Of a stretch of DNA of 64,000 nt, positions 24,891 through 53,838 are shown piece after piece. A model generated the notes under the pieces. It made no database searches and was not told the DNA's origin. It saw only the letters and a list, made by a program, of their open reading frames with translations. The stretch's first letter is position 1. Each line of letters opens with the position of its first letter. Source of the stretch: Defluviitaleaceae bacterium (lineage in GTDB: Bacteria > Bacillota > Clostridia > Lachnospirales > WQUN01); the NCBI GenBank assembly GCA_009779755.1, contig WRDO01000007.1, forward strand, positions 21,165-85,164, written 5' to 3'. A program made the translations under genes and the position numbers.

Positions 24891-26101
24891 AACCCTTAAC
24901 GGATGAACAACTTTTAGGATTATTAAACGATATCGAATCCGATAAATCGGAACGCAAGCAATCCATGCGGGGAAACACCCCCGACACCGCCCGTCAAGCC
25001 ATTTGCGCATTTGCAAATGATATGTCCGGCCACAATGAAGCGGGTGTTTTATTTATCGGAGCCGACGATAACGGCAACCCATCCGGCGAACCGATAACGG
25101 ATGAACTCATCAGGGTATTAGCTGACATAAAAACGGACGGTAAGATATTGCCGTTACCCGTAATGACGGTAGAAAAGCGTGTTTTAAAAGGTTCGGATAT
25201 GGCGATTATAACCGTAATGCCTTCGGACATGCCCCCCGTAAAATATAACGGGCGTATATGGATACGTACGGGGTCACGCAGGGTTATAGCGGGCGAACAG
25301 GACGAACGGATATTAAACGAAAAACGCAGGCACAAAAATTTACCCTACGATTTGTACCCGGTACCTACCGCAACAATCACCGACTTATCCCGGGCTTTAT
25401 TTGAAGACATATTTTTACCCGGCGCATTCGCGCCTGAAATATTGGATGAAAACAACCGAACTTATGAAGAACGTTTGGCATCATGTATGATGATTGTATC
25501 ACCCGAGGACACGACACCCACAGTACACGGTCTGCTTGCGATAGGAAAAACCCCGCAAACGCATATACCCGGCGCATATATTCAATTCATACGTATGGAT
25601 GGGAATGAACTGTCAAATGATGTAATCGACGAGGCAACCATATCCGGCCCCATCCCTAACATGATGACCCACATAAATCACGTAATTTCCGCCCACAACC
25701 GTCGCGCCTTCGACATAACCTCCGCACCAACACATAAGATAACGGAAACGTATCCCATATCCGCAATCCAACAAATTATTTATAATGCCGTTATGCACAG
25801 GACATACGAACGCACCAACGCACCCGTCCACTTCCATTGGTACGACGATCGTATCGAAATCATCAGCCCGGGCGGGCTATACGGTAACGTAACAATTGAC
25901 ACCTTGGGCAAACCCGGCGTAGTGGACTACCGAAACCCTAACCTCGCCGCAACCATGAAAACATATGGCCTCGTGCAACGCTTTGGCCGCGGGATAACCA
26001 TCACCCGGGACGAAATGAAGAAAAACGGCAACCCCGCACCGGAGTTCCATGCCGATCAAGGTCTTGTAAAATGCACCATGAGGAAAGGAAGTGCGTTATG
26101 A
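24884..26101 (+). CDS. AlbA_2 (Schlafen-like) DNA-binding / ATPase-like regulator family protein
   Basis: 405-aa ORF; N-terminal ESDKSERKQSM..AICAFANDMSGHNEAGVLFIGADDNG (AlbA_2 pattern); C-terminal RNPNLAATMKTYGLVQRFGRGI typical of this regulator family; overlaps both neighbours (ATGCTAA, ATGA). Confidence 0.65.
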   Translation: MLKPLTDEQLLGLLNDIESDKSERKQSMRGNTPDTARQAICAFANDMSGHNEAGVLFIGADDNGNPSGEPITDELIRVLADIKTDGKILPLPVMTVEKRVLKGSDMAIITVMPSDMPPVKYNGRIWIRTGSRRVIAGEQDERILNEKRRHKNLPYDLYPVPTATITDLSRALFEDIFLPGAFAPEILDENNRTYEERLASCMMIVSPEDTTPTVHGLLAIGKTPQTHIPGAYIQFIRMDGNELSNDVIDEATISGPIPNMMTHINHVISAHNRRAFDITSAPTHKITETYPISAIQQIIYNAVMHRTYERTNAPVHFHWYDDRIEIISPGGLYGNVTIDTLGKPGVVDYRNPNLAATMKTYGLVQRFGRGITITRDEMKKNGNPAPEFHADQGLVKCTMRKGSAL

Positions 26102-28053
26102 AAATTACCGTAATGATCGATTTAATGGATAACGAAACGGATATAAATAACCTCCGGCATTTATCTGACCTTCGGAACGCAAATGATGTTAACTTCGTAT
26201 TGATTACCGATAAAAAAAGATATGAAATTCCCATAATTAGCGATAAAACCTTAAACATAACGGTTCAAAAAGAAAAATCAAACATCCCCGGCATCGTGTT
26301 CCCCATGACGGGTAATGAAATATTAAATAAAAACGCCGTTGATTACATAAAAGATTTTTACCAATACAACGAAACAACTAAGGAAATTCCAAACGATGTA
26401 CGGGTATTGTTCGTATCCGAAGTGCAACCCCCTCCACAACAGGATTTATCAACACAAGAAGAACCCCCCGCTTTTTTAATCAGCTGTATCCTACCCATTT
26501 GCGAAGGTTCGGAACATCTGCGTGAAGCCATCGACAGCGTGATAAATCAAACGATAGGGTTTGAGGAAAATGTGCAGTTAATCATTATCGATGACGTACA
26601 GAATGATAAAATAAAATATATTTATAGTGAATATCAAGATAAATTCCCCAATAATCTTTTAATCATTAACCAATACCAACAAAGTCTGTGTGTTGCCAGG
26701 AACGCCGGTTTGGATGCAGCGAAGGGAAAATATATTTCTTTTTTGGATGAAGATGGGATTTATTATAATGATTATTTTGATGTATGCTATACACACCTTA
26801 ATGATCCCCGATATTCGTCTATTGTTATAACCGCAATTGAACCTTTGCAAAATGATGAATACGTATCACCTTTGCTCAACCTATATTTTAAGAGTACAAC
26901 GACGTTTTCATCGAAATCAAATTCACACAACATTCTTTCGACAGTATGTAATGTAATATATGACCGAGCGATTTCCGAAAATATATATTTCGATACACGG
27001 TTCGGTATATTTAATGAACTTGAATTCCTTCACCGTTTGTATTTGGAATATGAAAAATATACCGTAATAAGTACATCCAAATATTTTAAGCGAAATTGTT
27101 TAATTTCACGAGATTTACATTTTATTGATTACGATGAATTGGATTTTATTCGTCATTTATTCGATGTTTCGATTAACAAAACGGGTAAAATAACGCGATA
27201 TACAAAATACAATGCTTTTGCTTTGTTTGTATATTATCAAAATATAATACATAAAAATAAAAAATTTGACATTGAAGTACTTAGATCATTATTAAACGAA
27301 ATAGACGGTATCATTATAAGAAACGTATTAAAATCAAATAAACCGAATGATATGTTGATGCGCCAATTTATGCTTACACTAATCAACCAACCACAGCAAA
27401 TAAAAAATCAAATTATAATATTAAATTATGATACGGCCGATGAATGCATTACATTAAAAGGGTATTTTATTATTCCTTACAATCATGATTATGATATATT
27501 AATAACTTCCGGCAATGAAAATAATAATATACAAATCATACACCATGAATATGAAAAATATTTAGGATTCATAATTTCGGAAAAACGTTTCTTTACGGTT
27601 TTATGTTGTAATTGCGATTCGTTATTGTTTTATGCGATAGATCCTTCCGGAATGACGCAAAATATCCCGTGCTTACCATATTATGCGGAAGAAAACACCG
27701 ATTGGTTTAAGCTATGCGGCGAAAAACTATTTTCAGGTACTAAAAACAGCAATATTATAAACATCAACACGATTGAAAAAAAGCACTTAAAATTAATGCT
27801 TTCAGATATAATCAAAAAAACATATTTCGCCGCCGAATATGACGAAGAAATAAAAGTTATATACGATTACCTTCGTATAATTGAATTATTTCCTGAAGGA
27901 TATAATGCGCCGGATGTTTTAGACGGCGTCGAATACGGTTCCGGCGAACATAAGCTGTACTGCCTTCTTAATAAAAAAGAGTTCCCCTTCGATGCCGTTG
28001 AACATAAGGAATTTAACGCGATATATCACGGTATCACCGTCGACACACCATGA
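26098..28053 (+). CDS. GT2 glycosyltransferase with unknown N- and C-terminal extensions
   Basis: Start moved to ATG 26098 (ATGA overlap); SCILPICEGSEHLREAIDSVINQT..LIIIDDVQND..ARNAGL..ISFLDEDG GT2 core; about 370-aa unassigned C-terminus; very AT-rich. Confidence 0.75.
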   Translation: MKITVMIDLMDNETDINNLRHLSDLRNANDVNFVLITDKKRYEIPIISDKTLNITVQKEKSNIPGIVFPMTGNEILNKNAVDYIKDFYQYNETTKEIPNDVRVLFVSEVQPPPQQDLSTQEEPPAFLISCILPICEGSEHLREAIDSVINQTIGFEENVQLIIIDDVQNDKIKYIYSEYQDKFPNNLLIINQYQQSLCVARNAGLDAAKGKYISFLDEDGIYYNDYFDVCYTHLNDPRYSSIVITAIEPLQNDEYVSPLLNLYFKSTTTFSSKSNSHNILSTVCNVIYDRAISENIYFDTRFGIFNELEFLHRLYLEYEKYTVISTSKYFKRNCLISRDLHFIDYDELDFIRHLFDVSINKTGKITRYTKYNAFALFVYYQNIIHKNKKFDIEVLRSLLNEIDGIIIRNVLKSNKPNDMLMRQFMLTLINQPQQIKNQIIILNYDTADECITLKGYFIIPYNHDYDILITSGNENNNIQIIHHEYEKYLGFIISEKRFFTVLCCNCDSLLFYAIDPSGMTQNIPCLPYYAEENTDWFKLCGEKLFSGTKNSNIININTIEKKHLKLMLSDIIKKTYFAAEYDEEIKVIYDYLRIIELFPEGYNAPDVLDGVEYGSGEHKLYCLLNKKEFPFDAVEHKEFNAIYHGITVDTP

Positions 28054-31000
28054 ATTTCACAACATCGGCAAAAAACTTAAAGACAATAAAAATGGCATGT
28101 ATAATGGACGAATTTTCATTTCGTTCATACGAGCCGGAATGTATATTGCATGAATTAACGCCAATGGGTTACGTTAAGGAAATCAATGATTTTAAACCTG
28201 ATTTGCTTTTTATTGAATCTGCTTGGCTCGGTAAAGAAAACCTTTGGACCCGAAAAATAGCCAACGGTTCACCGGAATTAGAAAACCTGACGAAGCATTG
28301 CCGCAATAAAAAAATACCGATCGTATTTTGGTGCAAGGAAGATCCCGTACACTTCGAAACATTCCTTCCCGTCGCTAGGTTGGCGGATTTCGTATTTACA
28401 ACGGATGAGGATTGTATACCCAAATATATAACCGATTTAAAACATAACCATGTATACCACCTCCATTTTGCGGCCCAACCGCAAATGCATAACCCCATCG
28501 AATACTTTCCAAGAAAAGACAGGTTTTGCTTTGCCGGCGCGTATTATAAAAAATTCCCGGAGCGTTCGGGCGTTCTTGAAAGGCTTGCGCCTGTTTTTAA
28601 CGACACCCTTGGCTTGGATATATATGACCGCAACCATGGCAGTACCCAAACAGACATTTCCTTCCCGGAAAGATACAAAAAAAATATTAAAGGCTTTCTT
28701 CCTTACGATAAAATGGAAAAGGCTTACAAAGGTTACCGTTATGGCGTTAATATAAATACGACAACCCAATCCACGTCCATGTTCGCAAGACGTGTGTTCG
28801 AGCTTATGGCATCCAATACGGTAGTGGTCGGAAACCATTCTAAAGGGCTTAAAAATTATTTCGGTGAGTTGACGATATGCGCGGATTACGCGGAAACGAT
28901 GGCAACCGCACTAAAAAAGTTAATCGAAGACGAAACGTATTACCGCAAGTACAGGCTCTTGGGGTTGCGAAACGTTATGGCTTTTCACTTATATAAAGAC
29001 CGGCTCGATTTCATCGTAAAAACGGTATATGGGAAATCATTAAAACCACCGCTCCCATCTGTCGCCGTCATAATAAAAAACCCAAAAACCAAAGCCATAT
29101 TTGATAAACAAAAATATGAAAATAAATCCCTGCATACCATATCCGACCATACATTAATAAAAAACCTCCCCGCCGAATATATAACCTTTTTTGACGAAAG
29201 GGATTATTACGGCGAAAATTACCTGACCGATTTGATGCTCGCCACACGTTATTCTGATTTAAACGGGATAGGTAAATCCGGCCATTTTAAAAATACCGAT
29301 GGTATAAAACTTATCGGCAATAATTATCGCTATTGCAATGTGACCCTTCTTCCGACGCGAAGATCAATTTTTAAAAGGAATTTCTTGGGAAATATATCAC
29401 AAGAAGATTTTATAATCACACCCACTTTACGCGGCGATTTTTTATCCTTGGATGAATTTAATTATTGTGAAAATTATAATGGGGTATCGTGTGCGGAGGT
29501 TGACGATTTTATGATCGCCGATACTCCATTAAACATAAAAAAAATTAATCCAACCGTAATAAATAATAAATCCAAAGTAGAAAAACCCACCCCTATTAAA
29601 CCCGTTACCGATATACTGTCCATTTCAAATTTACGTGTGGCTACGATATTGGATGAATTCTCATCTGTATCCTTCGGCATGTCATGTAAGACTTTTCCCA
29701 TCACAATAATCGGGTTCCGTGATGAGATAGAAAACGTGAAGCCGCATTTCCTTTTGGTCGAATCCGCATGGCACGGTACGAACGACAGTTGGCTGTATAA
29801 AATCGGGAACTATGCCCGTAATAATTGGGTTGAGTTAAAAGAATTAATTGAATTATGTCGTAAAAAAAGCGTACCGACGGTTTTTTGGAACAAGGAAGAC
29901 CCCGTTCATTACGCAAGGTTTATCGACGCAGCCAAATTATTTGACCGGATATACACATCCGACGCAAACATGATCGATAAATACAGAACCGATGCCGGAC
30001 ATAACAACGTAGGTTCATTGATGTTCGCCGCCCAACCGAATATACATAACCCTGTAATTGAAATGACACGAAATAAGGGGAGTTTTTTTGCCGGTTCATA
30101 TTACGCCAGCCGACACGAGCAACGCCGCACCGACATGGATATGTTGTTTGACGCCGCCGCGAAGTTTCCCTTCACCATATATGACCGGAATGCCGGAACG
30201 GATAGCGAGCACTACCTTTTTCCGGAACGGTTCAGGAAATTCATCAAGGGAAAATTACCCTATTCGGAAATTAACAAGGCGTATAAAGGTTATCAAATCG
30301 CGTTAAATGTAAATAGTGTAACCGATTCGGATACGATGTTTTCGCGCCGTGTTTTTGAATGTTTGGCTTGCGGGACCCCGGTTATAAGCACACCTTCCGT
30401 AGGTGTAAAAAAGCATTTTAATAATATCGTAGCTACGGCAACTAACGTCGAAAACTACATTGAAATATTAAAGCAACTTGTTAATGATCCCAAGTGTTGG
30501 GCACATATTTCACATTTGGGTGCGCGTGAAGTAATGCAAAACCACACGTATTCACATAGATTACAGCAAATATGCGGAGACTTAAACATAGAACTGACGG
30601 ATAACACCCAACCCCGGGTAACGGTGATATCAACCGCCAAAGATCGGGGTTCCGTATTCCGCGTTTTGGATATGTTCCGCAAACAAGTTTATAAAAATAA
30701 ATTCTTATGGTTGTATCTATACCGCTTCGACAGTTGGTTGGATGCGATAAACACGTTGCAATCCAATGATGTTTCCGTTTTCTTTGTGGACCATACGAAC
30801 AATATCCCATTCAACTTACCCGATGATTGTTTAATCGCTTATATGGAACCGGAAACCGCTTGGTATGGCGTTCATTATTTATCCGACATGGTTATGGCGC
30901 ATAAATATTCAAAAGCGGACATAGTTTCCAAACCCGTAGATTCGAAAGGTATATTGCCTTGCTCCTCACTTACAAAGCGCTCATCGTTAAATGCAATGAA

Positions 31001-31097
31001 CCTTCATGATTTACTTAATATAAAAATAGAAGGTAAGGTTTTTTACACGGATGGGTTCAATTTTTCACGTAATCATAATAATTGCGTTGACGTATGA
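28050..31097 (+). CDS. tandem-duplicated CgeB/YkvP-like glycosyltransferase
   Basis: 1015-aa ORF; ATGA overlap. Two collinear approximately 500-aa units (ACIMDEFSFRSY..LFIESAW..SMFARRVFELMASNT and ATILDEFSSVSF..LLVESAW..TMFSRRVFECLACGT), each with a similar tail. Confidence 0.6.
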   Translation: MNFTTSAKNLKTIKMACIMDEFSFRSYEPECILHELTPMGYVKEINDFKPDLLFIESAWLGKENLWTRKIANGSPELENLTKHCRNKKIPIVFWCKEDPVHFETFLPVARLADFVFTTDEDCIPKYITDLKHNHVYHLHFAAQPQMHNPIEYFPRKDRFCFAGAYYKKFPERSGVLERLAPVFNDTLGLDIYDRNHGSTQTDISFPERYKKNIKGFLPYDKMEKAYKGYRYGVNINTTTQSTSMFARRVFELMASNTVVVGNHSKGLKNYFGELTICADYAETMATALKKLIEDETYYRKYRLLGLRNVMAFHLYKDRLDFIVKTVYGKSLKPPLPSVAVIIKNPKTKAIFDKQKYENKSLHTISDHTLIKNLPAEYITFFDERDYYGENYLTDLMLATRYSDLNGIGKSGHFKNTDGIKLIGNNYRYCNVTLLPTRRSIFKRNFLGNISQEDFIITPTLRGDFLSLDEFNYCENYNGVSCAEVDDFMIADTPLNIKKINPTVINNKSKVEKPTPIKPVTDILSISNLRVATILDEFSSVSFGMSCKTFPITIIGFRDEIENVKPHFLLVESAWHGTNDSWLYKIGNYARNNWVELKELIELCRKKSVPTVFWNKEDPVHYARFIDAAKLFDRIYTSDANMIDKYRTDAGHNNVGSLMFAAQPNIHNPVIEMTRNKGSFFAGSYYASRHEQRRTDMDMLFDAAAKFPFTIYDRNAGTDSEHYLFPERFRKFIKGKLPYSEINKAYKGYQIALNVNSVTDSDTMFSRRVFECLACGTPVISTPSVGVKKHFNNIVATATNVENYIEILKQLVNDPKCWAHISHLGAREVMQNHTYSHRLQQICGDLNIELTDNTQPRVTVISTAKDRGSVFRVLDMFRKQVYKNKFLWLYLYRFDSWLDAINTLQSNDVSVFFVDHTNNIPFNLPDDCLIAYMEPETAWYGVHYLSDMVMAHKYSKADIVSKPVDSKGILPCSSLTKRSSLNAMNLHDLLNIKIEGKVFYTDGFNFSRNHNNCVDV

Positions 31098-33214: not shown

Positions 33215-33249
33215 CTTAATGAGTTAAATAACTGTCCGGGTGGTAAAAA

Positions 33250-38354: not shown

Positions 38355-40615
38355 AACCACGTTTGATGTTAACAGTGGATGTGGAAGCCCATCAAAAACG
38401 CGCCGCGGAAGACCACGTCGAACGCTTGATATACGGTAGACAAAATGGCGTTGAATGGGGTATCGGTAAAATGATGGACATCGCCGATGGCTTCAATGTA
38501 AAAATGGTTTTTTATTTGGACTTCGCGGAAGTGGCTGTATACGGCGAAGCGATTACGGAAGTAGGAAAATATATTGTGACCCGCGGACACGATTTGCAAT
38601 TACATGGCCATCCGGATGTATTGCCGACAGAATTTTGGAAAAACAGGGGGATTTCGCCGCAAACAAACGCGAACTTGTTCACTCCCGTACACGCGGATGC
38701 TTATATTTATTATTTGGTAAATGAACACCAAAAATGCGCACCCTACCACCCCACCGCATACCGGGGCGGAGCATTCCGAATCAACGCACCTTTATTAGAC
38801 GCGCTTCGAAAACATAAAATCCCCATTGACGCTTCTTACAATCTACACAGTGAAAACCGCCCATGCGACCTAGCGCCGAGCAAGCAGTTTTATTGGGAAA
38901 ACGGTGTTTTGGAAATCCCAATTGCTGTGATTAACGATACGAATGTGTTCCCCACACTGGCATCCTTGGATTTTAATTCCGCCCGATTTAACGACAGGCA
39001 CGATTATAAAGCCGATGTCAATGTCTATATGGATAATTACCGTCGTTTTTTTGATTCCTTTTTTAAGACGTTCGGAACGGATGCGATAGCGTCCGTCGTT
39101 ATGCATTCCTGGTCCTTTTTCCAACGGGCGGAAGATGAAACATATTCTGTAATAAACCCACTTGCGCCAAAAATGTTTGAAAATTTGCTTTTAGAATATT
39201 CAAAAAAATTCGATATAATAACTGTTTCGGATATTTCGCAACAAATAAATTCGCAAAAATTTTCAAATATTATTATACCAATGCCTCAGGGTGAAAACCT
39301 TAAAATGGAATGTCCCATATGCGGTTGGACAGGGAAGACATTTAACCCTTATAACGGAAGAAATAACGCCGAATGCCCCATATGTTATTCATTGGAAAGA
39401 CATCGGCATTTATGGTTGTACTATAATTATTCACAACTTTTGGAAATAGCCGTACCAAAAAAAGTGTTAATTTTCGCGCCTTCCGGTTCAATAATTTCGA
39501 AGCTAAGGAGATATAAAAACCTAGAATTGGTGACTGCCGATATAAATCCAAAACGAGCGGAACATCAGGTTGACGTACAAGCCATCCCGTTTGAAGATGA
39601 ATCCTTCGATTTCATTGAATGTTTTTTCGTACTACCCTATGTGGAGGATGACGTAAAAGCATTAAATGAATTGCATCGTGTGCTTAAAACCAACGGAAAA
39701 ATCGCACTTTATTTACCCATACGAGCTATATCGGAAGGGTCAATAGATTTATACGCCGTAGATACCCCATTCACGGAAACGGAAAGGAAAAACAACCCCG
39801 GTTTCCGCCATGTATACGGATCGGATGTATTAAATTGGCTGGCCCTCCCGGGTTTTAATGCACAAAGAATAGATAATATCGTTACATACTCCCCGGATGA
39901 ATTAAAGCGTTATGGTATAAACTCCTCTTCAAGTATTTTTATATTGGAAAAAATAAAAACCACAAAAAATACGGATAGAATAGCAGAAGCCTATCATGGT
40001 GCGATGGGTGAAAATTTATGCAGGGCTACCCGAGATAGGATACATTGGATATGTGAAAGAGCCATAGGAGAAAATATATTGGATGTAGGATGCAGTCAAG
40101 GAATAACCACCATTTTATTAGCACGTGAAGGCAAGCGTGTTGTCGGTGTGGACATATGCCAACAAGGTATTGATTATGCTCAACAATCATTGAAGAACGA
40201 AAATAAAACCACACGCGAATATATAAAATTTTTATGCACGGATTTCGTTTCTTATGCAAAAAAATGCAACAAAAAATTTGACAGCATCATAATGGGGGAG
40301 GTATTGGAACACCTTACAGAACCGGAACGTTTTATATCTAAGGCATACACTATTTTATGCGACGGCGGACGGCTGGTAGCTACAGTCCCTTTCGGAATAA
40401 ATAACTACCATGACCATAAACGCACGTATTACCTCACGGCGTTCTATAACCTTTTTATTGATAAATTCACTATAACCGAGATTAAATTCCTTGGTGATTG
40501 GATAGGTATTGTGGGAGTGAAAGTAAAAGCGGAAGGAATTAAATTGGACAGCGCTTTGTTTATGCAAGCGGAAGAGGCTTTTATGATACGCGAAAAGGAG
40601 TTACGCCGGATGTAA
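38351..40615 (+). CDS. CE4-like polysaccharide deacetylase + zinc-ribbon methyltransferase + class I methyltransferase fusion
   Basis: ATGA overlap. LTVDVEAH..GHDLQLHGHP deacetylase-like N-domain. CPICGW..CPICYSLERHRH (from 39311) plus an MTase paralogous to the preceding gene. ILDVGCSQG..GEVLEHL third domain. Confidence 0.6.
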   Translation: MKPRLMLTVDVEAHQKRAAEDHVERLIYGRQNGVEWGIGKMMDIADGFNVKMVFYLDFAEVAVYGEAITEVGKYIVTRGHDLQLHGHPDVLPTEFWKNRGISPQTNANLFTPVHADAYIYYLVNEHQKCAPYHPTAYRGGAFRINAPLLDALRKHKIPIDASYNLHSENRPCDLAPSKQFYWENGVLEIPIAVINDTNVFPTLASLDFNSARFNDRHDYKADVNVYMDNYRRFFDSFFKTFGTDAIASVVMHSWSFFQRAEDETYSVINPLAPKMFENLLLEYSKKFDIITVSDISQQINSQKFSNIIIPMPQGENLKMECPICGWTGKTFNPYNGRNNAECPICYSLERHRHLWLYYNYSQLLEIAVPKKVLIFAPSGSIISKLRRYKNLELVTADINPKRAEHQVDVQAIPFEDESFDFIECFFVLPYVEDDVKALNELHRVLKTNGKIALYLPIRAISEGSIDLYAVDTPFTETERKNNPGFRHVYGSDVLNWLALPGFNAQRIDNIVTYSPDELKRYGINSSSSIFILEKIKTTKNTDRIAEAYHGAMGENLCRATRDRIHWICERAIGENILDVGCSQGITTILLAREGKRVVGVDICQQGIDYAQQSLKNENKTTREYIKFLCTDFVSYAKKCNKKFDSIIMGEVLEHLTEPERFISKAYTILCDGGRLVATVPFGINNYHDHKRTYYLTAFYNLFIDKFTITEIKFLGDWIGIVGVKVKAEGIKLDSALFMQAEEAFMIREKELRRM

Positions 40616-40768
40616 AAACTGGTCTTAACAGCAAAGCAAATAAATATATCATAAACTATCCGAATGATCTTACGGATGCCGAATGGAAAAACAGGTTGCC
40701 AATATCCACGATACCAATAGCGGCGTACTTAAAGTTATAAAAAATAGGATGATCAGGAGTGTTAATTT

Positions 40769-41509
40769 ATGAAAATTATAGCCGTCATACCTGCAAGATA
40801 CGCTTCCAGCCGTTTTCCCGGTAAACCGCTTGCTGACATACATGGTAAACCCATGATTTGGTGGGTATACAACCAGATAAAAAAAGCAACCCGCTTAAAC
40901 AGTATAATCGTGGCAACCGATGATAAAAGGATATTGGCAACTTGCGAAGATTTAAATATAACTGTATGTATGACAAATATTAACCATAACACACCTACAT
41001 CAAGGACACATGAAGTATCGACCAGATACGAAGCTGATTTATATATAATGATTAATGGTGATGAACCTATGATAGATCCAAAAGTGATCGATCATATAAT
41101 TCCAAAAAGTTTACAAAAAAAACCTTATGTGGCAAGTGCGGCGACAACCATTTCAAACGCAACCGATGTAATTGACCCCACAAATTTAAAAGTTGTACTT
41201 TCGAATGATAATAAATTATTATATATTTCACGCGCACCCATTCCATACCCAAAGGGAACGAATGAATATACGTATAAAAAATTCGTTGGTATTCAAGCAT
41301 TAAATAAATCTGCGCTTGACTTTTATGTAAATAAACCCAAAAGTCCCCTTGAATGGATTGAAGAATCTGATTTATTGCGGTTTATTGAAAATGGAATTGA
41401 AGTAGACTTTATAAATGTTAACTATAACAACCTATCTATTGATACACCAAAGGATTTGGAAAAAATAAAAAAAATTATAAGAAAAGAGGAAGATCATGAA
41501 GGAATATAA
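40769..41509 (+). CDS. kdsB: 3-deoxy-manno-octulosonate cytidylyltransferase (CMP-Kdo synthetase)
   Basis: 246-aa ORF; MKIIAVIPARYASSRFPGKPLADIHGKPMIWWVY is a textbook KdsB N-terminus. Confidence 0.85.
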   Translation: MKIIAVIPARYASSRFPGKPLADIHGKPMIWWVYNQIKKATRLNSIIVATDDKRILATCEDLNITVCMTNINHNTPTSRTHEVSTRYEADLYIMINGDEPMIDPKVIDHIIPKSLQKKPYVASAATTISNATDVIDPTNLKVVLSNDNKLLYISRAPIPYPKGTNEYTYKKFVGIQALNKSALDFYVNKPKSPLEWIEESDLLRFIENGIEVDFINVNYNNLSIDTPKDLEKIKKIIRKEEDHEGI

Positions 41510-41660
41510 TTTAAAGATATTAGCAAACGTGATGAACAGCGCTATATTTTCAGATATCCTCGATGATTATAATGTGGATTATCTAATAAGAAGCCTTAAA
41601 CCGAACATTTTTAATTCAAAAATATTTGGGCGTGCAAACATTTTGAAACTACGCGCATGA
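41496..41660 (+). pseudogene. truncated RraA-like (aldolase/regulator family) gene fragment
   Basis: 54-codon ORF overlapping the kdsB end; NSAIFSDILDDYNVD..KIFGRANILKL resembles the first third of RraA-family proteins, then stops; followed by about 230 nt of non-coding filler of different composition. Confidence 0.3.
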
Positions 41661-41887
41661 CCCGTTTACAGGAAACCTCCGAAACCACCATATCCATGAT
41701 ATTCCTGTGCATGAACATCAAGCGCCGGCTGAGGGAACTTTTTTTTACATTTGGGTTTGGGCGTTATTCGGTAGTATGTTTGTGGATAATTCAATAAATA
41801 AGGCGTTCATTGCCAAAAATATGGTTTGTTCGTAAACCCTAATTTAATAATATCTTATTGGTATTTTTCGCAGAAAGGTATGATTTT

Positions 41888-42577
41888 ATGAAAGTGGTAA
41901 TATTAGGAAAGGCTAGTTCCGTCAGAATTAAAAATAAAAATTATCGACCATTCTATAATGGTGAATCATTAATGGACATACACATTAAAAAATTGATCAA
42001 TGTATTACAACCTGATGATATATACCTTTCATGCGAGGATGAAACGTTCCGGAGCGTTGCTCAAAATTGGAAAATTAATTTCATCCTCCGTGATGAAAGG
42101 TATACAAGATTGACAACCAGCAACGTCGATGTCGTGCATTATGTGTGTAAGGATGTCCCGGGCAACGGGGATATATTATGGACAACTCCTGTGGAGCCGT
42201 TGTTCGATGAATATACAAACGTTTTAGAATGTTGGGAAAGGATAGATAAAACCAAACATGATTCGCTTAACGTTGTATATCCTCAAAAAAGGTTTATTTT
42301 GGATCAAAATTATAATCCAATTGGTTTCGGCTTCGGTCATTGGCACAAATATTCACAAGATATACCACCCATATACCAAGTGAGTTGGTCAACGGCTATT
42401 TTAAGCAGGGCTTGTATAGAAAAGGTCAGTTATATGATTGGTGCGCGTCCCTTTTGGTACGATTGTTATTCAACCGTAGTAGATATCGATACGGAGGATG
42501 ATTGGGAGATTGCACAATTACTCTATTCTAAAAAAATCAAGGAAGGTTACACGAATGGAAATCATAGAAATTTATAA
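41888..42577 (+). CDS. acylneuraminate (NeuA-like) cytidylyltransferase family protein
   Basis: Start moved to ATG 41888; MKVVILGKASSVRIKNKNYRPFYNGESLMD resembles the CMP-sugar synthetase N-terminus (..R.p.KN...l.G..L..); divergent. Confidence 0.5.
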   Translation: MKVVILGKASSVRIKNKNYRPFYNGESLMDIHIKKLINVLQPDDIYLSCEDETFRSVAQNWKINFILRDERYTRLTTSNVDVVHYVCKDVPGNGDILWTTPVEPLFDEYTNVLECWERIDKTKHDSLNVVYPQKRFILDQNYNPIGFGFGHWHKYSQDIPPIYQVSWSTAILSRACIEKVSYMIGARPFWYDCYSTVVDIDTEDDWEIAQLLYSKKIKEGYTNGNHRNL

Positions 42578-43019
42578 AGATCTTCTACGCCAAGCCCATG
42601 TAATAATCCCAAAAAAAGCGGAAATAAAACTATATCACCATTATGGCGCTGAAAACGTCCGTGAAACAGGTGCGTTATTCATAACGGTCGTCCAACATGA
42701 TTATTGTAAATATATCGTATGTATGACTCCCGGGCAAACATACCCAATGCATTATCACCGAATCAAGGACGAATCATTTTATGTTTTACACGGCGATTTA
42801 TCCGTTGTGCTTGAAGATGAATTTCATTTAATAACACCGGGTGAAATTCTTAACGTACCCCGTCGATTTACGCACGGCTTTTCAACCAAAACCGGATGCG
42901 TATTTGAGGAACTTTCGACAGCCTATTTATTAAACGATTCGGTTTATCAGGATAAATATATAAGAAACATATCCGGTAGCGATAAAATGACTTATATATC
43001 CATTCATGAAAATAAATAA
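42555..43019 (+). CDS. cupin-fold sugar isomerase (D-lyxose/D-mannose isomerase-like)
   Basis: Start moved to ATG 42555; exact cupin motif 1 GQTYPMHYHRIKDESFYVLHG (G-x5-HxH-x4-E-x6-G) and motif 2-like GEILNVPRRFTH. Confidence 0.55.
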   Translation: MEIIEIYKDLLRQAHVIIPKKAEIKLYHHYGAENVRETGALFITVVQHDYCKYIVCMTPGQTYPMHYHRIKDESFYVLHGDLSVVLEDEFHLITPGEILNVPRRFTHGFSTKTGCVFEELSTAYLLNDSVYQDKYIRNISGSDKMTYISIHENK

Positions 43020-43039
43020 ATATAAAAGGATGTAGGAAA

Positions 43040-43867
43040 ATGACAAACGTTAAATCTTTTCATATTGATGATTGTTTTGAAATCGGGAATGGGGTTTTAA
43101 CACTTATCGGCGGCCCGTGTTCCATCGAAAGTGAAGACATGTGCCTTAAAGTTGCTGCAACGGTATTGGATATTTGCAAGGAACTGGGTATAAATTACAT
43201 CTTTAAATCATCCTTTGACAAAGCCAACCGGTCATCATTAAACGCGAGCCGGGCTTTGGGTATGGAAAAGGGATTAAAAATATTAAGTAAAATAAAAAAG
43301 GAATTATCGGTTCCAATTACAACCGATGTGCACGAAGTTTGGCAATGTGCTGAAGTCGGCGAAGTGGTTGATATCATACAAATACCCGCATACTTGTGTC
43401 GGCAAACAGATTTATTAATAGCCTCGGCAAAAACGGGTAAGGCCGTAAGCGTAAAAAAAGGCCAATTTATGGCACCGCAAAACATGGACAACGCAATTAA
43501 AAAAATCACATCGGTAGGCAACCACAAGTGCATCTTAATGGAACGCGGAACATCATTTGGTTATAATAAGTTGGTGGTAGACATGCCGGGCTTGCAAATT
43601 ATGCGTGAATTCGGTTACCCCGTATTTATCGATGCCACACATTCAGTCCAAGAACCCGGCGGAAACGCAACATACACAAAGGGAAATCGTGATTTTGCAA
43701 AGCTGATTATGTATTCGGCATTAGCCGCTGGGGTTGATGGCGTTTTTGCGGAAATCCACCCCGACCCGGATAATGCCGCCTCAGATGTTGGGAGCCAATT
43801 AAAATTATCGGAAGTACGCGAAATATTAAAAAAAGCGGTGTTAATAAACGATATTGCATGGCAGTAA
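43040..43867 (+). CDS. kdsA: 3-deoxy-8-phosphooctulonate (Kdo8P) synthase
   Basis: 275-aa ORF; FKSSFDKANRSS, QIPAYLCRQTDLL, VVDMPGLQIM, IDATHSVQ and FAEIHPDPDNA are collinear with E. coli KdsA; GGPCSIES carries the Cys of the metal-dependent class. Confidence 0.9.
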   Translation: MTNVKSFHIDDCFEIGNGVLTLIGGPCSIESEDMCLKVAATVLDICKELGINYIFKSSFDKANRSSLNASRALGMEKGLKILSKIKKELSVPITTDVHEVWQCAEVGEVVDIIQIPAYLCRQTDLLIASAKTGKAVSVKKGQFMAPQNMDNAIKKITSVGNHKCILMERGTSFGYNKLVVDMPGLQIMREFGYPVFIDATHSVQEPGGNATYTKGNRDFAKLIMYSALAAGVDGVFAEIHPDPDNAASDVGSQLKLSEVREILKKAVLINDIAWQ

Positions 43868-43885
43868 CAGAACGGGAGAGATATT

Positions 43886-44386
43886 GTGATTGATCATATT
43901 GTTTTGGATGTTGACGGCACACTTACCGACGGTAAGATTATTATTTCTAACCATGGAGAAGAAATTAAAAATTTTCACGTAAGGGATGGTCAAATAATTA
44001 TTGCATTACCGAAATTAGGATACCATCTTTTAATAATAACAGGACGAACCTCTAAGATTACTGAAATAAGGGCAAATGAATTGAAAATAAATACCGTCCT
44101 GCAAGGAGTACAGAACAAAGAAAAAACGTTGAATGATTACTTTAAAATGAACTACATAACAGGTGATAGATTTGCTTATATCGGCGACGATTTGAATGAT
44201 TATTCAGCCATGAAGTTGTGCGCTTTTAAAGCCTGCCCGGCAGATGCTGTAACCGAAATCCGCGGGCTTTGCGATTACGTTTCCGTAAGGAAGGGAGGTC
44301 AAGGTGCAGTAAGGGAAATATGTGAATATTTATTACAAAAGCAGAATCAATATGAATCATTCTTGCAATTATTTAGAGCGTGCTGA
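43886..44386 (+). CDS. kdsC: Kdo8P phosphatase (HAD IIIA, KdsC family)
   Basis: GTG start; LDVDGTLTDG motif I, ITGR, GDDLNDYSAM motif III; KdsC-like length (166 aa). Confidence 0.85.
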   Translation: MIDHIVLDVDGTLTDGKIIISNHGEEIKNFHVRDGQIIIALPKLGYHLLIITGRTSKITEIRANELKINTVLQGVQNKEKTLNDYFKMNYITGDRFAYIGDDLNDYSAMKLCAFKACPADAVTEIRGLCDYVSVRKGGQGAVREICEYLLQKQNQYESFLQLFRAC

Positions 44387-44520
44387 ACACCCCAGCAAAA
44401 CCAACAAAATCAAGCAAAAACGCCAACAAATATTATAATATGGTGGACATCGCCGACCCCGTAGCGATACGGGCAATTTTTAACGGATATAAAACAGTAA
44501 TACAATAAAGGAGCAAAACA

Positions 44521-45747: not shown

Positions 45748-45965
45748 ACGTAATTCTTATTGCGCTATTTTCAAATCAACAAGCAATGATTCATGTAGTG
45801 CTTGTGATATATTGATGCCTTTTGCATGTTCAATCCAGTACGACATATTCAACCTATCTTCCCGAAAAGTTTAACGAGGCGGTTTAAAGCCAAAGGAGCG
45901 AACAAGGTAGCTTGTTTGTCGGTTACCTCACCGAGGACGCAACATTTGTCTTACCGTTTTACTTT

Positions 45966-46382
45966 TTACAAACCCTCCATAAATATCGAAGCGGTTGTTA
46001 TTAATGGGCGGTCAATTTCTACGGTTAACAAATCATTATCGCCGGTGATTAGGATATCGACATCTGCAGAAATCGCAGAATATAATATAGGTGCGTCTTT
46101 TATGTCGCGGATTGTGAACAAATAATCATTGGGTAATGGGAATGGTGTGTATTCAAGTTCAAATGGAAGTTTTTGTAAAAATGCAGAAACGTTTGCCATT
46201 TTGCTTGAAAACTTCTTTTCGACCACACGCTCAAACTCATCAATAATATAAGTTGATAAAACTAATTTGTGCCGTAAGCAAATATGTGAAAACAAATCAG
46301 TCAGAATTCGGCTTTTAAATACAGCAATGGATACTAAGATGTTTGTATCAACCATTATCCGCATTACAAGCCTCCCAAACAT
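45966..46382 (-). CDS. PIN-domain toxin
   Basis: 138-aa ORF; MVDTNILVS and ILITGDNDLL acidic motifs; start uncertain (46382, 46364 or 46355); overlaps the antitoxin gene end. Confidence 0.75.
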   Translation of the reverse strand: MFGRLVMRIMVDTNILVSIAVFKSRILTDLFSHICLRHKLVLSTYIIDEFERVVEKKFSSKMANVSAFLQKLPFELEYTPFPLPNDYLFTIRDIKDAPILYSAISADVDILITGDNDLLTVEIDRPLITTASIFMEGL

Positions 46383-46812: not shown

Positions 46813-46821
46813 ATTGCATTG

Positions 46822-53826: not shown

Positions 53827-53838
53827 AAAACCATTCCT

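Follow-up and report, generated by a model that had tools for sequence, protein, structure and literature searches.

An AT-rich island of giant fused glycan enzymes and CMP-Kdo supply genes in a termite-gut Defluviitaleaceae bacterium

What is made by an AT-rich run of giant multi-domain genes in a GC-richer genome, and where did it come from? These questions are raised by a 64,000-nucleotide stretch of DNA (the window) from a Defluviitaleaceae bacterium, an uncultured termite-gut member of the class Clostridia. A preliminary description had read the run by eye as a horizontally acquired cassette for a heavily methylated, partly de-N-acetylated, Kdo-containing glycan. Foreign origin, CMP-Kdo supply and the fused methyltransferase and CE4-fold modules survived analysis; the clean insertion and the basis for methyl esters did not. 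The reading tentatively preferred here is a laterally acquired, cytoplasmic-side assembly line for an acidic, O-methylated, Kdo-bearing envelope glycopolymer.

Composition, gene chain and synteny

G+C was 0.370 in 26098-44386 versus 0.523 in 1-26097 and 0.527 in 48131-64000. The sliding-window profile was stepped, with 1-kb means of 0.379 inside (sd 0.043, n=22) and 0.524 outside (sd 0.044, n=41; Mann-Whitney p=5e-10). Codon usage followed: GC3 was 0.24-0.43 in eleven island genes versus 0.67 in the upstream gene g0. The abrupt drop described at 26098 was reproduced in 100-nt windows, which fell from 0.51-0.57 to 0.32-0.35 at 26.1 kb, a step inside 100 nt. The right edge had been placed too early, at the end of kdsC (about 44.4 kb); the low-GC block reaches about 48.13 kb, with GC-normal patches at 44.8-45.4 and 46.8-47.4 kb. 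Its tail was annotated from the Pfam scan, ORF list and GC profile.

45966..48091, minus strand: tail of the low-GC block
45966-46382, in the tail: PIN toxin (Pfam scan)
46348-46689, in the tail: AbrB/MazE-like antitoxin (Pfam scan)
46822-47273, in the tail: DUF2922 and a small partner ORF (Pfam scan)
47753-48091, in the tail: DUF1902/HicB-like protein (Pfam scan)

The six largest products (651, 1015, 706, 848, 852 and 754 aa over 14.5 kb) are encoded on the plus strand in a chain exactly as first described, with ATGA overlaps at 26098, 28050, 31094 and 38351, one TAG/GTG overlap of 1 nt at 35796 and 35 nt of spacing ahead of 33250. The genes upstream, within the variable region, are as follows.

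17516..48130: strain-variable region of 30.6 kb, delimited on both sides by where synteny to the closest relative MAG stops
18969..20879, plus strand: 636-aa secreted protein with SLH-like N-terminal motifs, beta-helix-like repeats and a Pro/Thr-rich linker (hydrophobic N-terminus taken as signal peptide; weak PF00395 SLH match)
21327..24890, plus strand: g0, 1187-aa GT2 and TagF-like (Glyphos_transf) fusion, GC-normal (PF00535 E 1.5e-29, PF04464 E 5.5e-10)
24884..26101, plus strand: 405-aa AlbA_2/Schlafen and HATPase_c_4 protein (PF04326, PF13749)

The closest NCBIfam models of g0 were EPS and teichuronic-acid GT2s including TuaG, all under cut-off. The 405-aa gene lies exactly at the compositional step and carries the overlap chain across it, sharing 7 nt with g0 and an ATGA with the first AT-rich gene. 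This coupling contradicts a clean insertion into a wall-glycan locus with junctions at about 26.1 and 44.4 kb, as do the synteny breaks. The closest relative was the MAG Defluviitaleaceae Lab288P1bin109, with flanks at 84-93% nucleotide identity (blastn). Its contig L010 aligned up to window position 17515 (left flank) and its contig L008 from 48131 (right flank). Between these positions no blastn match to this MAG was found, and both contigs carry unrelated DNA there; the AT-rich part occupies the right two-thirds of this 17.5-48.13 kb region. Clusters related to the island lie in genomes of 0.31-0.42 GC. The contrast in G+C and GC3, the loss of synteny at 17515 and 48131 and these low-GC relatives together support foreign, laterally acquired DNA, as had been proposed. 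Since both relative-MAG contigs differ beside the breakpoints, rearrangement in place of gain may have occurred there. The reported absence of mobility genes and repeats was borne out: no tRNA was found in the region, no integrase or transposase in Pfam scans, and boundary-spanning repeat matches were only short, low-identity and two-copy, as expected by chance.

Modules of the giant proteins

26098..28053, plus strand: g1, 651 aa, GT2 domain at aa 129-268 (PF00535, E 2e-19)
28050..31097, plus strand: g2, 1015 aa, two CgeB/YkvP-like GT-B modules (about aa 15-330 and 525-850)
31094..33214, plus strand: g3, 706 aa, two GT-B (GT4-like) modules
33268..34104, plus strand: g4 N-terminal domain (aa 7-285), pectin-methylesterase-like beta-helix (PF01095, E 1.7e-43)
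34297..35769, plus strand: g4 C-terminal domain (aa ~350-840), sialyltransferase-like GT-B by predicted structure and Foldseek
35796..38354, plus strand: g5, 852 aa, three Asp-boxes, methyltransferase at aa ~446-560, Zn-ribbon and methyltransferase at aa 637-851
38351..40615, plus strand: g6, 754 aa, CE4/NodB fold at aa 1-305, Zn-ribbon and methyltransferase at aa 321-540, methyltransferase at aa ~560-690

Pfam bore out the GT2, the two CgeB-like modules and the GT-B fold recognised by eye, the last being two modules in the 706-aa protein. The g1 protein (gene GC 0.33) was 24% identical to the GT2 region of g0, and its C-terminal half (~380 aa) matched no family. PF13524 matched g2 in two stretches (E 1e-33) together with PF12996, and P0128 was matched by both halves. 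PF13692 and PF00534 matched g3 in two stretches, with PF13524 at aa 209-331. The chain would be built by seven glycosyltransferase modules in five proteins, including g0, g1, g2 and g3; the dual-module layout of g2 and g3 may be likened to that of repeat-unit polymerases.

The pectinesterase fold of g4 was confirmed by Pfam. In an alignment with plant pectin methylesterase (PDB 1gq8), N, N and Q occupy the positions of catalytic D136, D157 and R225, and the motifs are YTNTL (aa 132), GDFNIILG (165) and WLGQPF (225) versus canonical YQDTL, GxVDFIFG and YLGRPW. Because both catalytic Asp and the Arg are missing, the domain is probably no esterase. The proposed methyl-ester glycan leaned on this fold and so lost its footing. 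The dead beta-helix could serve as a binding module for acidic glycan.

The C-terminal ~550 aa of g4, a sialyltransferase-like GT-B domain that the preliminary description had not noticed, belong to a family not in Pfam, with 114 representative relatives at E<1e-3. Around a KPHP motif (aa 607-610), D595 and H609 are invariant and K607 and P610 near-invariant. The AF2 model (pLDDT 82, pTM 0.80) gave as best Foldseek PDB matches the polysialyltransferase 5wc6 (GT38), GT80 sialyltransferases and TagF, with modest similarity (E about 1e-5; TM 0.33-0.38 query, 0.45-0.52 target). In three of four informative foreign contigs, a cytidylyltransferase gene lay next to a family member or no more than 3 kb away; one was KdsB-type (52% identity to the island KdsB) and two were of the g8 type described below. 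The family is probably a new one among Kdo/sialic-acid-type sugar transferases. This domain is the best candidate for the transferase of Kdo or another CMP-sugar, and would attach a CMP-activated acidic sugar, most likely Kdo; its donor might instead come from the second cytidylyltransferase, in place of CMP-Kdo.

Four class I methyltransferase domains had been claimed, two with CxxC..CxxC ribbons, and were found: class I methyltransferase Pfam families matched g6 and, in two stretches, g5, and the ribbons lie at aa 637 of g5 and aa 321 of g6. The ribbon-methyltransferase modules of g5 and g6 share 50% identity. For the BNR propeller named by eye, g5 showed only three Asp-boxes (aa 83, 186 and 240) and weak, sub-threshold BNR_2 and Sortilin Pfam matches, so that an N-terminal propeller is possible. 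The claimed CE4-like domain of g6 had no Pfam or PDB sequence match, yet Foldseek of its AF2 model (pLDDT 92) matched the CE4/NodB deacetylases 3rxz, 3qbu and 8t0j, confirming the fold at the level of the model; its invariant residues are D10, E12, H80, D81, H85, H87, R138 and H252. Final tailoring of the chain would fall to these two proteins, through four methyltransferase modules and one de-N-acetylase-like module, targeted by fused sugar-binding-type domains (the possible propeller, the CE4-fold domain and the Zn-ribbons). Several fused methyltransferase modules agree with a heavily methylated glycan; the sites of methylation, like any de-N-acetylation by the island, are ones that we infer.

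Supply of CMP-sugars

Kdo is a sugar best known from Gram-negative bacteria. The genes downstream of the giant chain are listed below.

40769..41509, plus strand: kdsB, CMP-Kdo synthetase (NF009905, 259 bits, cut-off 255; TIGR00466, 157.7, cut-off 155.2)
41888..42577, plus strand: g8, divergent NeuA/PseF-like cytidylyltransferase (PF02348, E 3.5e-6)
42555..43019, plus strand: g9, Cupin_2 protein overlapping g8 (PF07883)
43040..43867, plus strand: kdsA, Kdo-8-phosphate synthase (NF003543, 372 bits, cut-off 242; TIGR01362, 355, cut-off 314)
43886..44386, plus strand: kdsC, Kdo-8-phosphate phosphatase, YrbI family (TIGR01670, 144.7 bits, cut-off 107)
44521..45747, plus strand: NDP-sugar dehydrogenase, UDP-ManNAc dehydrogenase-like (TIGR03026, 395 bits, cut-off 190)

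KdsA, KdsB and KdsC, as named by eye, all passed curated NCBIfam cut-offs, KdsB by only 2-4 bits; on the equivalog model NF007019 kdsC scored 147 bits, under the cut-off of 208. CMP-Kdo supply is thus encoded, and KdsA, KdsC and KdsB would make CMP-Kdo. The second cytidylyltransferase and the cupin were also found, the former by a weak match. TIGR03584 gave g8 46 bits, under cut-off, and the PDB a NeuA match at E 3e-5; g8 was 29-30% identical to the cytidylyltransferases adjoining relatives of the g4 C-terminal domain in contigs L011 and L017, and is predicted to be a second CMP-sugar synthetase. PDB matches of g9 were quercetinases, the cupin mannose-6-phosphate isomerase 7zvm and putative sugar-phosphate isomerases, consistent with a possible sugar(-phosphate) isomerase. 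The dehydrogenase scored 350 on NF008286, under the cut-off of 459. Pfam scans of the ORFs tested showed no SIS-type arabinose-5-phosphate isomerase (KdsD); within these scans the Kdo pathway therefore lacks a step. The g8 and g9 proteins may supply that arabinose-5-phosphate step or, alternatively, a second CMP-sugar.

Destination of the product and comparison with known systems

An envelope polymer is suggested by the genomic setting. The island shares strand and gene chain with g0 and with the SLH-like secreted protein whose gene opens the string, and the UDP-ManNAc-dehydrogenase-like gene stands at its 3' end. Widespread Lachnospiraceae clusters with CE4-methyltransferase and CgeB-like modules also hold genes of Pfam families to which known wall-polymer enzymes belong: Glyphos_transf (TagF), CTP_transf_like (TagD), LicD, PS_pyruv_trans and Epimerase_2 (MnaA). 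The cluster around one relative of the g4 C-terminal domain includes an ABC-2 permease and a long ABC ATPase. A block from a low-GC Firmicute would have been spliced into a strain-variable surface-glycan operon, its chain possibly capped by Kdo and/or methyl groups, and the product would resemble teichuronic or teichulosonic acid or be a secondary cell-wall polymer. We infer the donor and acceptor specificities, step order, capping role and destination. Against this reading weigh the missing KdsD and the Pfam scans of the 30-kb variable region, in which an initiating phosphoglycosyl transferase, a flippase, an ABC exporter, a polymerase or ligase and an LCP protein were all lacking; other parts of the genome would have to encode priming, export and attachment to the wall. 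The island proteins are all soluble, with no membrane segments.

Solubility and the lack of export genes also suit the main rival, an unlikely one: a spore-surface (crust- or exosporium-type) glycan made in the mother-cell cytoplasm, with CMP-Kdo in the role of the CMP-activated nonulosonic acid of the Bacillus subtilis sps pathway. Mother-cell enzymes would decorate the developing spore directly, so that no lipid carrier, exporter or ligase would be needed. The GT2 and TagF-like pairing of g0 resembles the SpsA and SpsB families of the sps operon, and a related termite-gut cluster fuses pectinesterase-like and methyltransferase modules to an APH-type kinase domain, which shares its fold with CotS-like spore kinases. 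An AntB-like GT2-GT2 protein, encoded on a B. cereus plasmid within an antABCD-type operon, has at its end a Zn-ribbon methyltransferase module like that of g5 and g6 (27% identity, pairwise E 1e-22); the ant product is anthrose, an O-methylated exosporium sugar (PMC10050317). The two CgeB/YkvP-like modules of g2 recall CgeB, a putative glycosyltransferase acting on the B. subtilis crust protein CgeA (PMC13577073), but ordinary wall-polymer clusters, too, contain CgeB-like and TagF-like families. Moreover, neither sporulation genes nor sporulation sigma-factor promoters nor spore-coat proteins were identified within the region or beside it, and the signal-peptide SLH-like protein speaks for the vegetative envelope.

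It is improbable that the block has no single product, being either a mosaic of at least two unrelated foreign cassettes or a partly decayed cassette. The giant glycosyltransferase and methyltransferase genes would form one pathway and the kds, cytidylyltransferase and cupin genes another, possibly for a Kdo-like acid. Per-gene GC ranges from 0.30 to 0.42, the dehydrogenase gene is GC-normal and native-like (GC3 0.58) within the AT-rich block, and tight coupling ends after 40615, with gaps of 153, 348 and 134 nt (the second is 378 nt if g8 starts at 41888, as the gene callers place it). The missing KdsD fits a mosaic too, no kds genes occurred in the seen neighbourhoods of giant-enzyme relatives, and one relative of the g4 C-terminal domain has an HMGL-type aldolase and a HAD phosphatase as partners where the island has KdsA and KdsC. 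However, the island genes are all intact, on one strand and closely spaced, both metagenome assemblies checked share their order with identical proteins, and the linkage of the g4 transferase family to CMP-sugar synthetases elsewhere ties the two halves functionally.

Least probable is cytoplasmic protein O-glycosylation of flagellin or of the Pro/Thr-rich linker of the adjacent SLH-like protein, adding an acidic CMP-sugar as in flagellin nonulosonic-acid glycosylation: soluble enzymes, absent lipid-carrier genes, a CMP-ulosonic acid module, a bona fide fliG (361 bits, cut-off 227) 11 kb upstream and a Clostridium Maf enzyme that can place Kdo on flagellin when it lacks its native donor (PMC11339370) speak for it, but no Maf (DUF115), flagellin gene or accessory Sec system was found among the ORFs scanned, the lone fliG is missing from the relative MAG and has unrelated genes between it and the island, cytoplasmic glycosylation would not be normal for a Sec-exported SLH protein, and seven glycosyltransferase modules with dual-module proteins suggest a polymer and not a short O-glycan.

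As far as searched, no characterised pathway has these fusions, as had been claimed; the modules are not unique, since CE4-like with Zn-ribbon-methyltransferase, pectinesterase-like with methyltransferase and CgeB-like giants recur in many uncharacterised clusters of Lachnospiraceae and termite-gut metagenomes. The envelope glycopolymer reading has precedents: in ABC-transporter-dependent O-antigen assembly, terminator proteins of several modules make Kdo and methyl caps (PMC11231755, PMC9587256), plant sialyltransferase-like enzymes transfer Kdo (PMC11288761), and Streptomyces walls carry methyl-substituted Kdn polymers, the teichulosonic acids (PMC11481543).

Kdo supply and the g4 protein

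The genes of the string, in window coordinates and with the names used here, were as follows.

21327-24890: g0, GT2 and TagF-like domains, upstream of the island and GC-normal
24884-26101: AlbA_2/Schlafen and HATPase_c_4 protein
26098-28053: g1, GT2 domain
28050-31097: g2, CgeB-like modules
31094-33214: g3, GT4-like modules
from 33250: g4, 848 aa, pectinesterase-like N-terminus and C-terminal domain (g4C)
35796-38354: g5, methyltransferase stretches
38351-40615: g6, CE4-like N-domain and methyltransferase stretches
40769-41509: kdsB
41888-42577: g8, cytidylyltransferase
42555-43019: g9, cupin
43040-43867: kdsA
43886-44386: kdsC
44521-45747: NDP-sugar dehydrogenase gene

The KdsA, KdsB and KdsC assignments, made by eye in the preliminary description, were scored against NCBIfam models, and all three were over the cut-offs. 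KdsA reached 372 bits with NF003543 (cut-off 242) and 355 bits with TIGR01362 (cut-off 314); DAHP synthase models were far under theirs. KdsB was marginal yet above both cut-offs (NF009905, 259.1 vs 255 bits; TIGR00466, 157.7 vs 155.2 bits). KdsC scored 144.7 bits with the YrbI subfamily model TIGR01670 (cut-off 107) and stayed under the cut-offs of two narrower models (equivalog NF007019, 147 vs 208; Kdn-9-P phosphatase, 111 vs 180). Two coupled genes between kdsB and kdsA, g8 and g9, encode a divergent NeuA/PseF-like cytidylyltransferase and a Cupin_2 protein. Cupin sugar-phosphate isomerases are among the PDB relatives of g9, and the name 'cupin isomerase' is plausible; that g9 stands in for arabinose-5-phosphate isomerase, of which no SIS-domain form (KdsD/GutQ/KpsF) was found by Pfam among the window ORFs scanned, is speculative. 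The gene at 44521, downstream of the kds genes, is UDP-ManNAc-dehydrogenase-like and has native-like codon usage.

The pectinesterase fold proposed for the N-terminus of g4 was recovered by PF01095 (148.9 bits, cut-off 27, E 2e-43) and by PDB entry 1gq8 (E 5e-22), the match to CE8 covering the whole beta-helix. In carrot numbering, the CE8 catalytic set D136, D157, R225, Q113 and Q135 reads Asn, Asn, Gln, Gln and Thr in g4 (D136N, D157N, R225Q, Q113 kept, Q135T), so that one of the two oxyanion-hole Gln is retained; W227F is a further replacement. The corresponding motifs are YTNTL, GDFNIILG and WLGQPF, against YQDTL, GxVDFIFG and YLGRPW in active enzymes. Because both Asp are replaced by Asn and the Arg by Gln, we read the beta-helix as a probable binding module rather than a methylesterase. 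With these residues replaced, the main basis for the methyl esters previously suggested in the product is gone. Also unlike CE8 pectin methylesterases, g4 is cytoplasmic without a signal peptide and is fused to a glycosyltransferase. Two related fusions from a termite-gut metagenome (P0123 and P0127) keep both Asp and have Trp where the Arg would be. The two best 'full-length' matches to g4 (P0002 and P0003) were set aside as triple pectinesterase repeats unrelated to the fusion, and no other whole-length match was found among 5.8 billion clustered proteins.

The rest of g4, ~550 residues, had been left without assignment. Residues 300-848 gave no sequence match in Pfam, NCBIfam or PDB, and by these searches g4C belongs to no existing CAZy or Pfam family. 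Its predicted structure (pLDDT 82, pTM 0.80) is a GT-B fold with two Rossmann-like halves. The top Foldseek matches were 5wc6, 4v39 and 2ex0 (E 1.5e-5 to 3e-5), a polysialyltransferase and GT80 sialyltransferases, followed by UDP-GlcNAc 2-epimerases and TagF. The domain is thus now described, from model and fold search, as a sialyltransferase-like GT-B domain. Its family was detected solely by exhaustive HMMER search, which gave 114 representative relatives. A word-indexed profile search with the family returned the query alone, AT-rich low-complexity words having probably swamped the candidates, and tblastn against plasmids found nothing. The relatives are mostly stand-alone proteins of ~500 aa; in some the domain is joined to a DUF6270, pyruvyl-transferase or Sel1 domain, and none has a Pfam domain over this region. 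The alignment holds one invariant Asp and one invariant His, the latter within a near-invariant KPHP (aa 607-610); among 23 aligned relatives H609 is invariant and P610 near-invariant.

Five foreign relatives of g4C were looked up, four of them on contigs long enough to be informative. A cytidylyltransferase gene was adjacent or within 3 kb on three of these four; one product is KdsB-type (52% identical to the island KdsB) and two are g8-type (29-30% identical to g8). With the window included, the family is linked to a CMP-sugar in four of five informative contexts, which makes g4C the best candidate for the acidic-sugar transferase. Since no sialic-acid synthase is present, CMP-Kdo or the g8 product is the likelier donor, the sequence favouring neither of the two. 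On the KdsB-type contig (L016, 1330-5876) the cytidylyltransferase gene is followed by genes for an HMGL-type aldolase and an HAD phosphatase, standing where KdsA and KdsC would, and then by the g4C relative; with this set a CMP-activated keto-deoxy acid may be made by another route.

Known Kdo transferases fall into families GT30 (WaaA), GT99 (WbbB), GT107 (KpsC/KpsS), GT137 and GT140 (KrkA). No island protein matched the WaaA or KpsC/S families in Pfam, and known Kdo transferases, WbbB, KpsC and KrkA included, were absent from the 50 best Foldseek matches of g4C; GT137 lacks a solved structure and falls outside this comparison. An assignment as a beta-Kdo transferase (GT99/GT107), considered for the HP motif, was dropped as the fold search places the domain elsewhere. 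The island provides a specific candidate, open to testing, for a new family of Kdo/ulosonic-acid transferases. In its full form the proposal is that g4C founds a KPHP GT-B family moving Kdo or a related CMP-activated ulosonic acid in monoderms, with the dead pectin methylesterase helix as an acidic-glycan-binding arm, and yields a Kdo-based, heavily O-methylated, teichulosonic-acid-like polymer, which would resemble the RG-II-like mix of plant pectin (Kdo, methyl ethers, uronic acids) and be made in a lignocellulose-digesting gut; taken as a whole this is tentative and somewhat unlikely.

Companion modules and their relatives elsewhere

No hydrophobic or membrane segment was found in any island protein. 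The GT2 domain noted in g1 is present, next to a ~380-aa half without family assignment. Both CgeB-like modules of g2 were recovered (PF13524, 116.7 bits over two stretches; PF12996, 39.1 bits, cut-off 25.2). The single GT-B enzyme noted next is of that fold, and g3 in fact holds two GT4-like modules. Upstream, the GC-normal g0 combines GT2 with a TagF-like domain.

Four class I methyltransferase stretches had been described and all four were found, two in g5 and two in g6, one per protein preceded by CxxC..CxxC. These ribbon-methyltransferase modules of g5 and g6 are 50% identical paralogues, and the g6 methyltransferase has a weak PDB match to WbdD. The N-terminal region of g5, a possible six-bladed propeller of the GH33/BNR sialidase-like kind, contains three Asp-boxes (SNNLGKSW, SRDNGFTW and SEDDGDTW) and matches BNR_2 and Sortilin under cut-off; no PDB sequence match to a propeller was found.

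Residues 1-305 of g6 have no Pfam or PDB sequence match, yet many homologues. Searched against PDB sequences, g5, g6 and the profile of the g6 family returned methyltransferase matches alone; the CE4 fold came from structure prediction. The AF2 model of this region (31 sequences, pLDDT 92) found CE4/NodB-type 3rxz (E 2e-9, TM on query 0.63), HP0310 (3qbu) and ArnD (8t0j) as best Foldseek matches, with E values of 1e-9 to 1e-8, and the distorted (beta/alpha) barrel of the earlier CE4-like call was borne out. GH57 enzymes and PuuE have the same fold. Invariant D10, E12, H85, H87, R138 and H252 are plausible catalytic positions; D10-x-E12 and H85-x-H87 differ from the canonical CE4 signature (PF01522), in which an Asp-His-His metal triad lies in TFDD and H(S/T)xxH. 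From the modelled fold, the domain may be a deacetylase.

The preliminary description knew of no characterised pathway with such fusions; they are particular in combination, but not unique in kind. The CE4-fold plus ribbon-methyltransferase pair is the core of a ~645-aa family that is very common in Lachnospiraceae, with well over 100 blocks in the assembly collection. Its clusters there contain genes for TagF-like, CTP_transf_like (TagD family), LicD, pyruvyl-transferase and UDP-sugar dehydrogenase proteins, as well as heparinase-II/III-like, CgeB-like and Epimerase_2 (UDP-GlcNAc 2-epimerase family) proteins; no transporter was found within the 20 kb seen. On a termite-gut contig, four genes in a string encode two CgeB-like giants and two pectinesterase-like fusions, one joining an APH-kinase, a pectinesterase-like domain and a methyltransferase, the other a pectinesterase-like domain, a CE4 fold and a methyltransferase. 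On Bacillus cereus A24 plasmid NZ_CP085502.1 (10231-12789), an AntB-like protein within an antABCD-type operon joins GT2-GT2 to a Zn-ribbon-methyltransferase as in g5 and g6 (ribbon motif C..C...CPVCYSMDRDR); the module may be what O-methylates anthrose-type sugars of the exosporium. The island fusions belong to a widespread modular repertoire, and the function ascribed to the island is inferred. Peculiar to the window is the way it combines a Kdo module, a sialyltransferase-like domain, a fully degenerate esterase and a probable BNR region.

Composition, boundaries and origin

The compositional island is real. G+C was 0.370 over 26098-44386, 0.523 in the left flank and 0.527 in the right, and 1-kb windows averaged 0.379 inside vs 0.524 outside (Mann-Whitney p=5e-10). 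The step at 26.1 kb is completed within ~100 nt. GC3 was 0.24-0.43 in the eleven genes of 26098-44386 and 0.67 in the gene just upstream. Sliding-window and codon calculations therefore agree with the abrupt AT-richness first seen by eye from 26098, and the profile is not flat. The right edge, previously placed at the end of kdsC (~44.4 kb), had to be moved: low G+C continues to ~48.13 kb, with two GC-normal patches. One is the NDP-sugar dehydrogenase gene at 44521-45747, which has host-like codon usage (GC3 0.58) though it lies within the AT-rich block; the second, at 46.8-47.5 kb, has no convincing ORF. On account of these two patches the block is regarded as a mosaic.

The gene chain was found as described, with ATGA junctions at 26098, 28050, 31094 and 38351 and a 35-nt gap before 33250; the junction at 35796 is a one-base TAG/GTG overlap. 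The six large products (651-1015 aa) together occupy 14.5 kb. Upstream, the overlapping chain crosses the compositional step through the AlbA_2/Schlafen gene at 24884-26101, which overlaps g0 by 7 nt and g1 by ATGA. This gene, with intermediate G+C (0.48), lies precisely at the step and is coupled on both sides; its AlbA_2/Schlafen plus HATPase_c_4 product is of a nucleic-acid-binding or regulator-like family inside a glycan gene string. Between kdsB and g8 (41510-41887), ~350-380 nt are without a convincing gene, callers placing a 54-aa ORF there; the stretch may be what is left of a gene, or a spacer with a regulatory role. Rfam gave zero matches in the window, this spacer included. Sigma-70 promoter counts equalled those of shuffled sequence, and terminator-like sites at 40.4-48.3 kb were about twice the shuffle mean and do not delimit transcription units.

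Proteins identical to those of the window, in the same gene order, were found on an ENA contig (ERZ27257304 k141_4924134, 99 kb) and a Logan contig (SRR10512951). In the GTDB collection the nearest genome is that of Lab288P1bin109, a termite-gut MAG (PMC7024585). Its left-flank contig (L010) is 84-93% identical to the window up to exactly 17515, and its right-flank contig (L008) 84-88% identical from exactly 48131 on, which puts the strain-variable region at 17.5-48.13 kb. The right two-thirds of this region are the AT-rich block, whose right edge is the synteny break. Before the point matching 48131, L008 carries unrelated GC-rich genes (VanW, TPR, RsmB, MOP-family protein). Past its own breakpoint, L010 (12250-14082) holds a GNAT gene, AT-rich DNA of its own (0.34-0.39) and a frame-broken APH/choline-kinase-like gene, and then ends; low-GC DNA seems to have settled repeatedly at this site (~17.5 kb). 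The second genome match (L009, 48% identity) was too distant for synteny.

Two marks of a mobile island were found: the composition is atypical, and the close relative lacks the island at the syntenic site. As first reported, there was no tRNA (ARAGORN) and no integrase, transposase or other recombinase (Pfam) around the island, and boundary-spanning repeats were short and at chance level. The evidence is good that the region is a gene-exchange hot spot and that its AT-rich part is foreign. The earlier idea of a simple insertion at 26.1 and 44.4 kb does not fit the wider variable region, and simple insertion is not proven there either, as both contigs of the relative also differ from the window beside the breakpoints. 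A low-GC Firmicute donor fits, since the genomes in which related clusters occur have 0.31-0.42 G+C. That such an island exists is no surprise in itself: as a rule, bacteria have glycan clusters that are low in G+C, exchanged horizontally and variable between strains.

Toxin-antitoxin-type genes lie at the left end of the variable region (17582-18838; HicB and a PBECR4 nuclease) and at the right end (45966-48091; PIN and AbrB/MazE-like, a DUF2922 pair, DUF1902/HicB-like), and a HicB gene also stands beside the glycan genes of a foreign contig with a g4C relative (L011). A second small AT-rich patch (7944-9458, GC 0.365), missing from the relative MAG, carries on its minus strand a 204-aa ORF whose sole family match is a faint Ig-like one. 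A histidine kinase/response regulator/ABC-FtsX block (55087-59549) is present in the window and not in the relative; a DUF4143 AAA ATPase gene (L008, 11248-12660) occurs in the relative only. In the amidase gene at 48196-48623, a 170-nt direct repeat (95% identical) corresponds to the two PG_binding_1 domains and indicates a recent internal duplication.

Predicted product and comparison with known systems

The island would serve a cytoplasmic-side assembly line, supplying CMP-Kdo and perhaps a second CMP-sugar. Seven glycosyltransferase modules would build the chain, the GT-B domain of g4 would add the acidic sugar, the dead beta-helix holding it on the substrate, and methyl transfer, perhaps with de-N-acetylation, would finish the product. 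The destination of that product is the weakest point of the reading. It may well be an envelope glycopolymer, which we hold at somewhat less than an even chance. This is favoured because the string opens with a secreted SLH-like protein and the GT2 plus TagF-like enzyme and includes the UDP-ManNAc-dehydrogenase-like gene, because the related Lachnospiraceae clusters look like wall-polymer loci, and because one g4C relative sits in an ABC-2 transporter cluster. Monoderm walls with methylated Kdn polymers (teichulosonic acids) provide a precedent (PMC11481543). Counted against it is the lack of a primer, exporter or ligase: no initiating phosphoglycosyl transferase, exporter/flippase or ligase was found in 17.5-48.1 kb, and the ABC-2 pair at 51.3-53.0 kb is part of a two-component module conserved in the relative MAG.

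The main rival, a spore-surface glycan made in the mother cell, would need no export and so explains these absences; the CgeB-like modules and the AntB-type methyltransferase point the same way (PMC13577073, PMC10050317). However, no sporulation link was found, and we consider it unlikely, with an appreciable residual chance. That the island is a mosaic of unrelated cassettes is improbable, and direct protein glycosylation slightly more so. A lone fliG at 14226-15227 is bona fide (TIGR00207, 361 bits, cut-off 227) and stands between URO-D-like and GlcNAc 2-epimerase-like genes with no other flagellar genes near; the syntenic contig of the relative has 45 nt in its place. A flagellar glycosylation island, prompted by this gene, was rejected as fliG is lone and strain-specific and no Maf or flagellin gene was found.

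Kdo is commonly regarded as a mark of Gram-negative surfaces (lipopolysaccharide and capsules) and of RG-II in plants. Most domain families of the island are already known. Unusual are the dedicated Kdo pathway in a Clostridia-class genome, the sizeable unannotated GT-B family tied to CMP-sugars and the recruitment of a pseudo-pectinesterase. If these readings are confirmed, a KdsA/KdsC/KdsB set would be dedicated to a monoderm Firmicute surface polymer, widening the known use of Kdo, and g4C would represent a sixth, structurally distinct route of Kdo (or ulosonic-acid) transfer beside GT30, GT99, GT107, GT137 and GT140. The g4C family, with more than 100 representative members all without annotation, could then be annotated, and the g4 domain is a testable candidate enzyme for glyco-engineering. 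A first functional handle would be gained on fused modules that are uncharacterised though very common in gut Lachnospirales (CE4-fold plus Zn-ribbon methyltransferase, pseudo-pectinesterase, CgeB-like giants).

Among HP-motif sialyltransferases (GT38/GT52/GT80), GT38 5wc6 and GT80 of Pasteurella and Photobacterium are the best structural matches for g4C. The GT-B fold and the genomic pairing with CMP-sugar synthetases are the same, and g4C has a strictly conserved His-Pro in its C-terminal half that may correspond to the one contacting the CMP phosphate in those enzymes. In contrast to them, g4C has no detectable sequence similarity, ~100 extra C-terminal residues and a fusion to a dead pectinesterase-like domain.

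In ABC-transporter-dependent O-antigen systems, terminator/polymerase proteins end chain growth with Kdo or methyl(-phosphate) caps (PMC9587256, PMC11231755). The island was compared with WbbB (Raoultella/Klebsiella O12, GT99 beta-Kdo cap), K. pneumoniae O4 ORF7 (GT137 alpha-Kdo cap), the O7 methyltransferase-kinase and WbdD. Like the island proteins, these are large and soluble or peripheral, with several glycosyltransferase modules fused to Kdo- or methyl-adding modules; they use CMP-Kdo and assemble on the cytoplasmic side (PMC9587256, PMC11231755). The likeness extends to the termite-gut relative in which an APH-type kinase is joined to pectinesterase-like and methyltransferase modules. 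It rests on the dual-module layout and the pairing of Kdo- and methyl-adding functions, and by analogy the island may have a Kdo/methyl capping role. O-antigen systems differ in serving Gram-negative LPS with Wzm/Wzt in the locus, whereas the island is in a Clostridia-class host and its region is without a transporter; its candidate Kdo transferase, unlike theirs, resembles sialyltransferases.

Bacillus spore genes (cgeAB/cgeCDE and sps of B. subtilis; antABCD of the B. cereus group) share with the island a CgeB-like glycosyltransferase, a GT2 plus TagF-like pair, a CMP-acidic-sugar module and an AntB-like Zn-ribbon methyltransferase (PMC13577073, PMC10050317). Their enzymes are likewise soluble and without an exporter. 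Identities are low, 27% in the case of the methyltransferase module. Structural genes of a crust or an exosporium are absent near the island, and its predicted sugar is Kdo, not a nonulosonic acid or anthrose.

The teichulosonic acids of Actinobacteria are represented by the Kdn-galactose wall polymers of Streptomyces, often substituted with methyl or GlcNAc (PMC11481543). Phylum and enzymes differ from those of the island: there nine-carbon Kdn is made by a NeuB-type synthase, whereas here eight-carbon Kdo made by KdsA is predicted. As methylated, phosphate-free acidic glycopolymers of monoderm walls built on a CMP-activated 3-deoxy-ulosonic acid, they represent the product class predicted here (PMC11481543).
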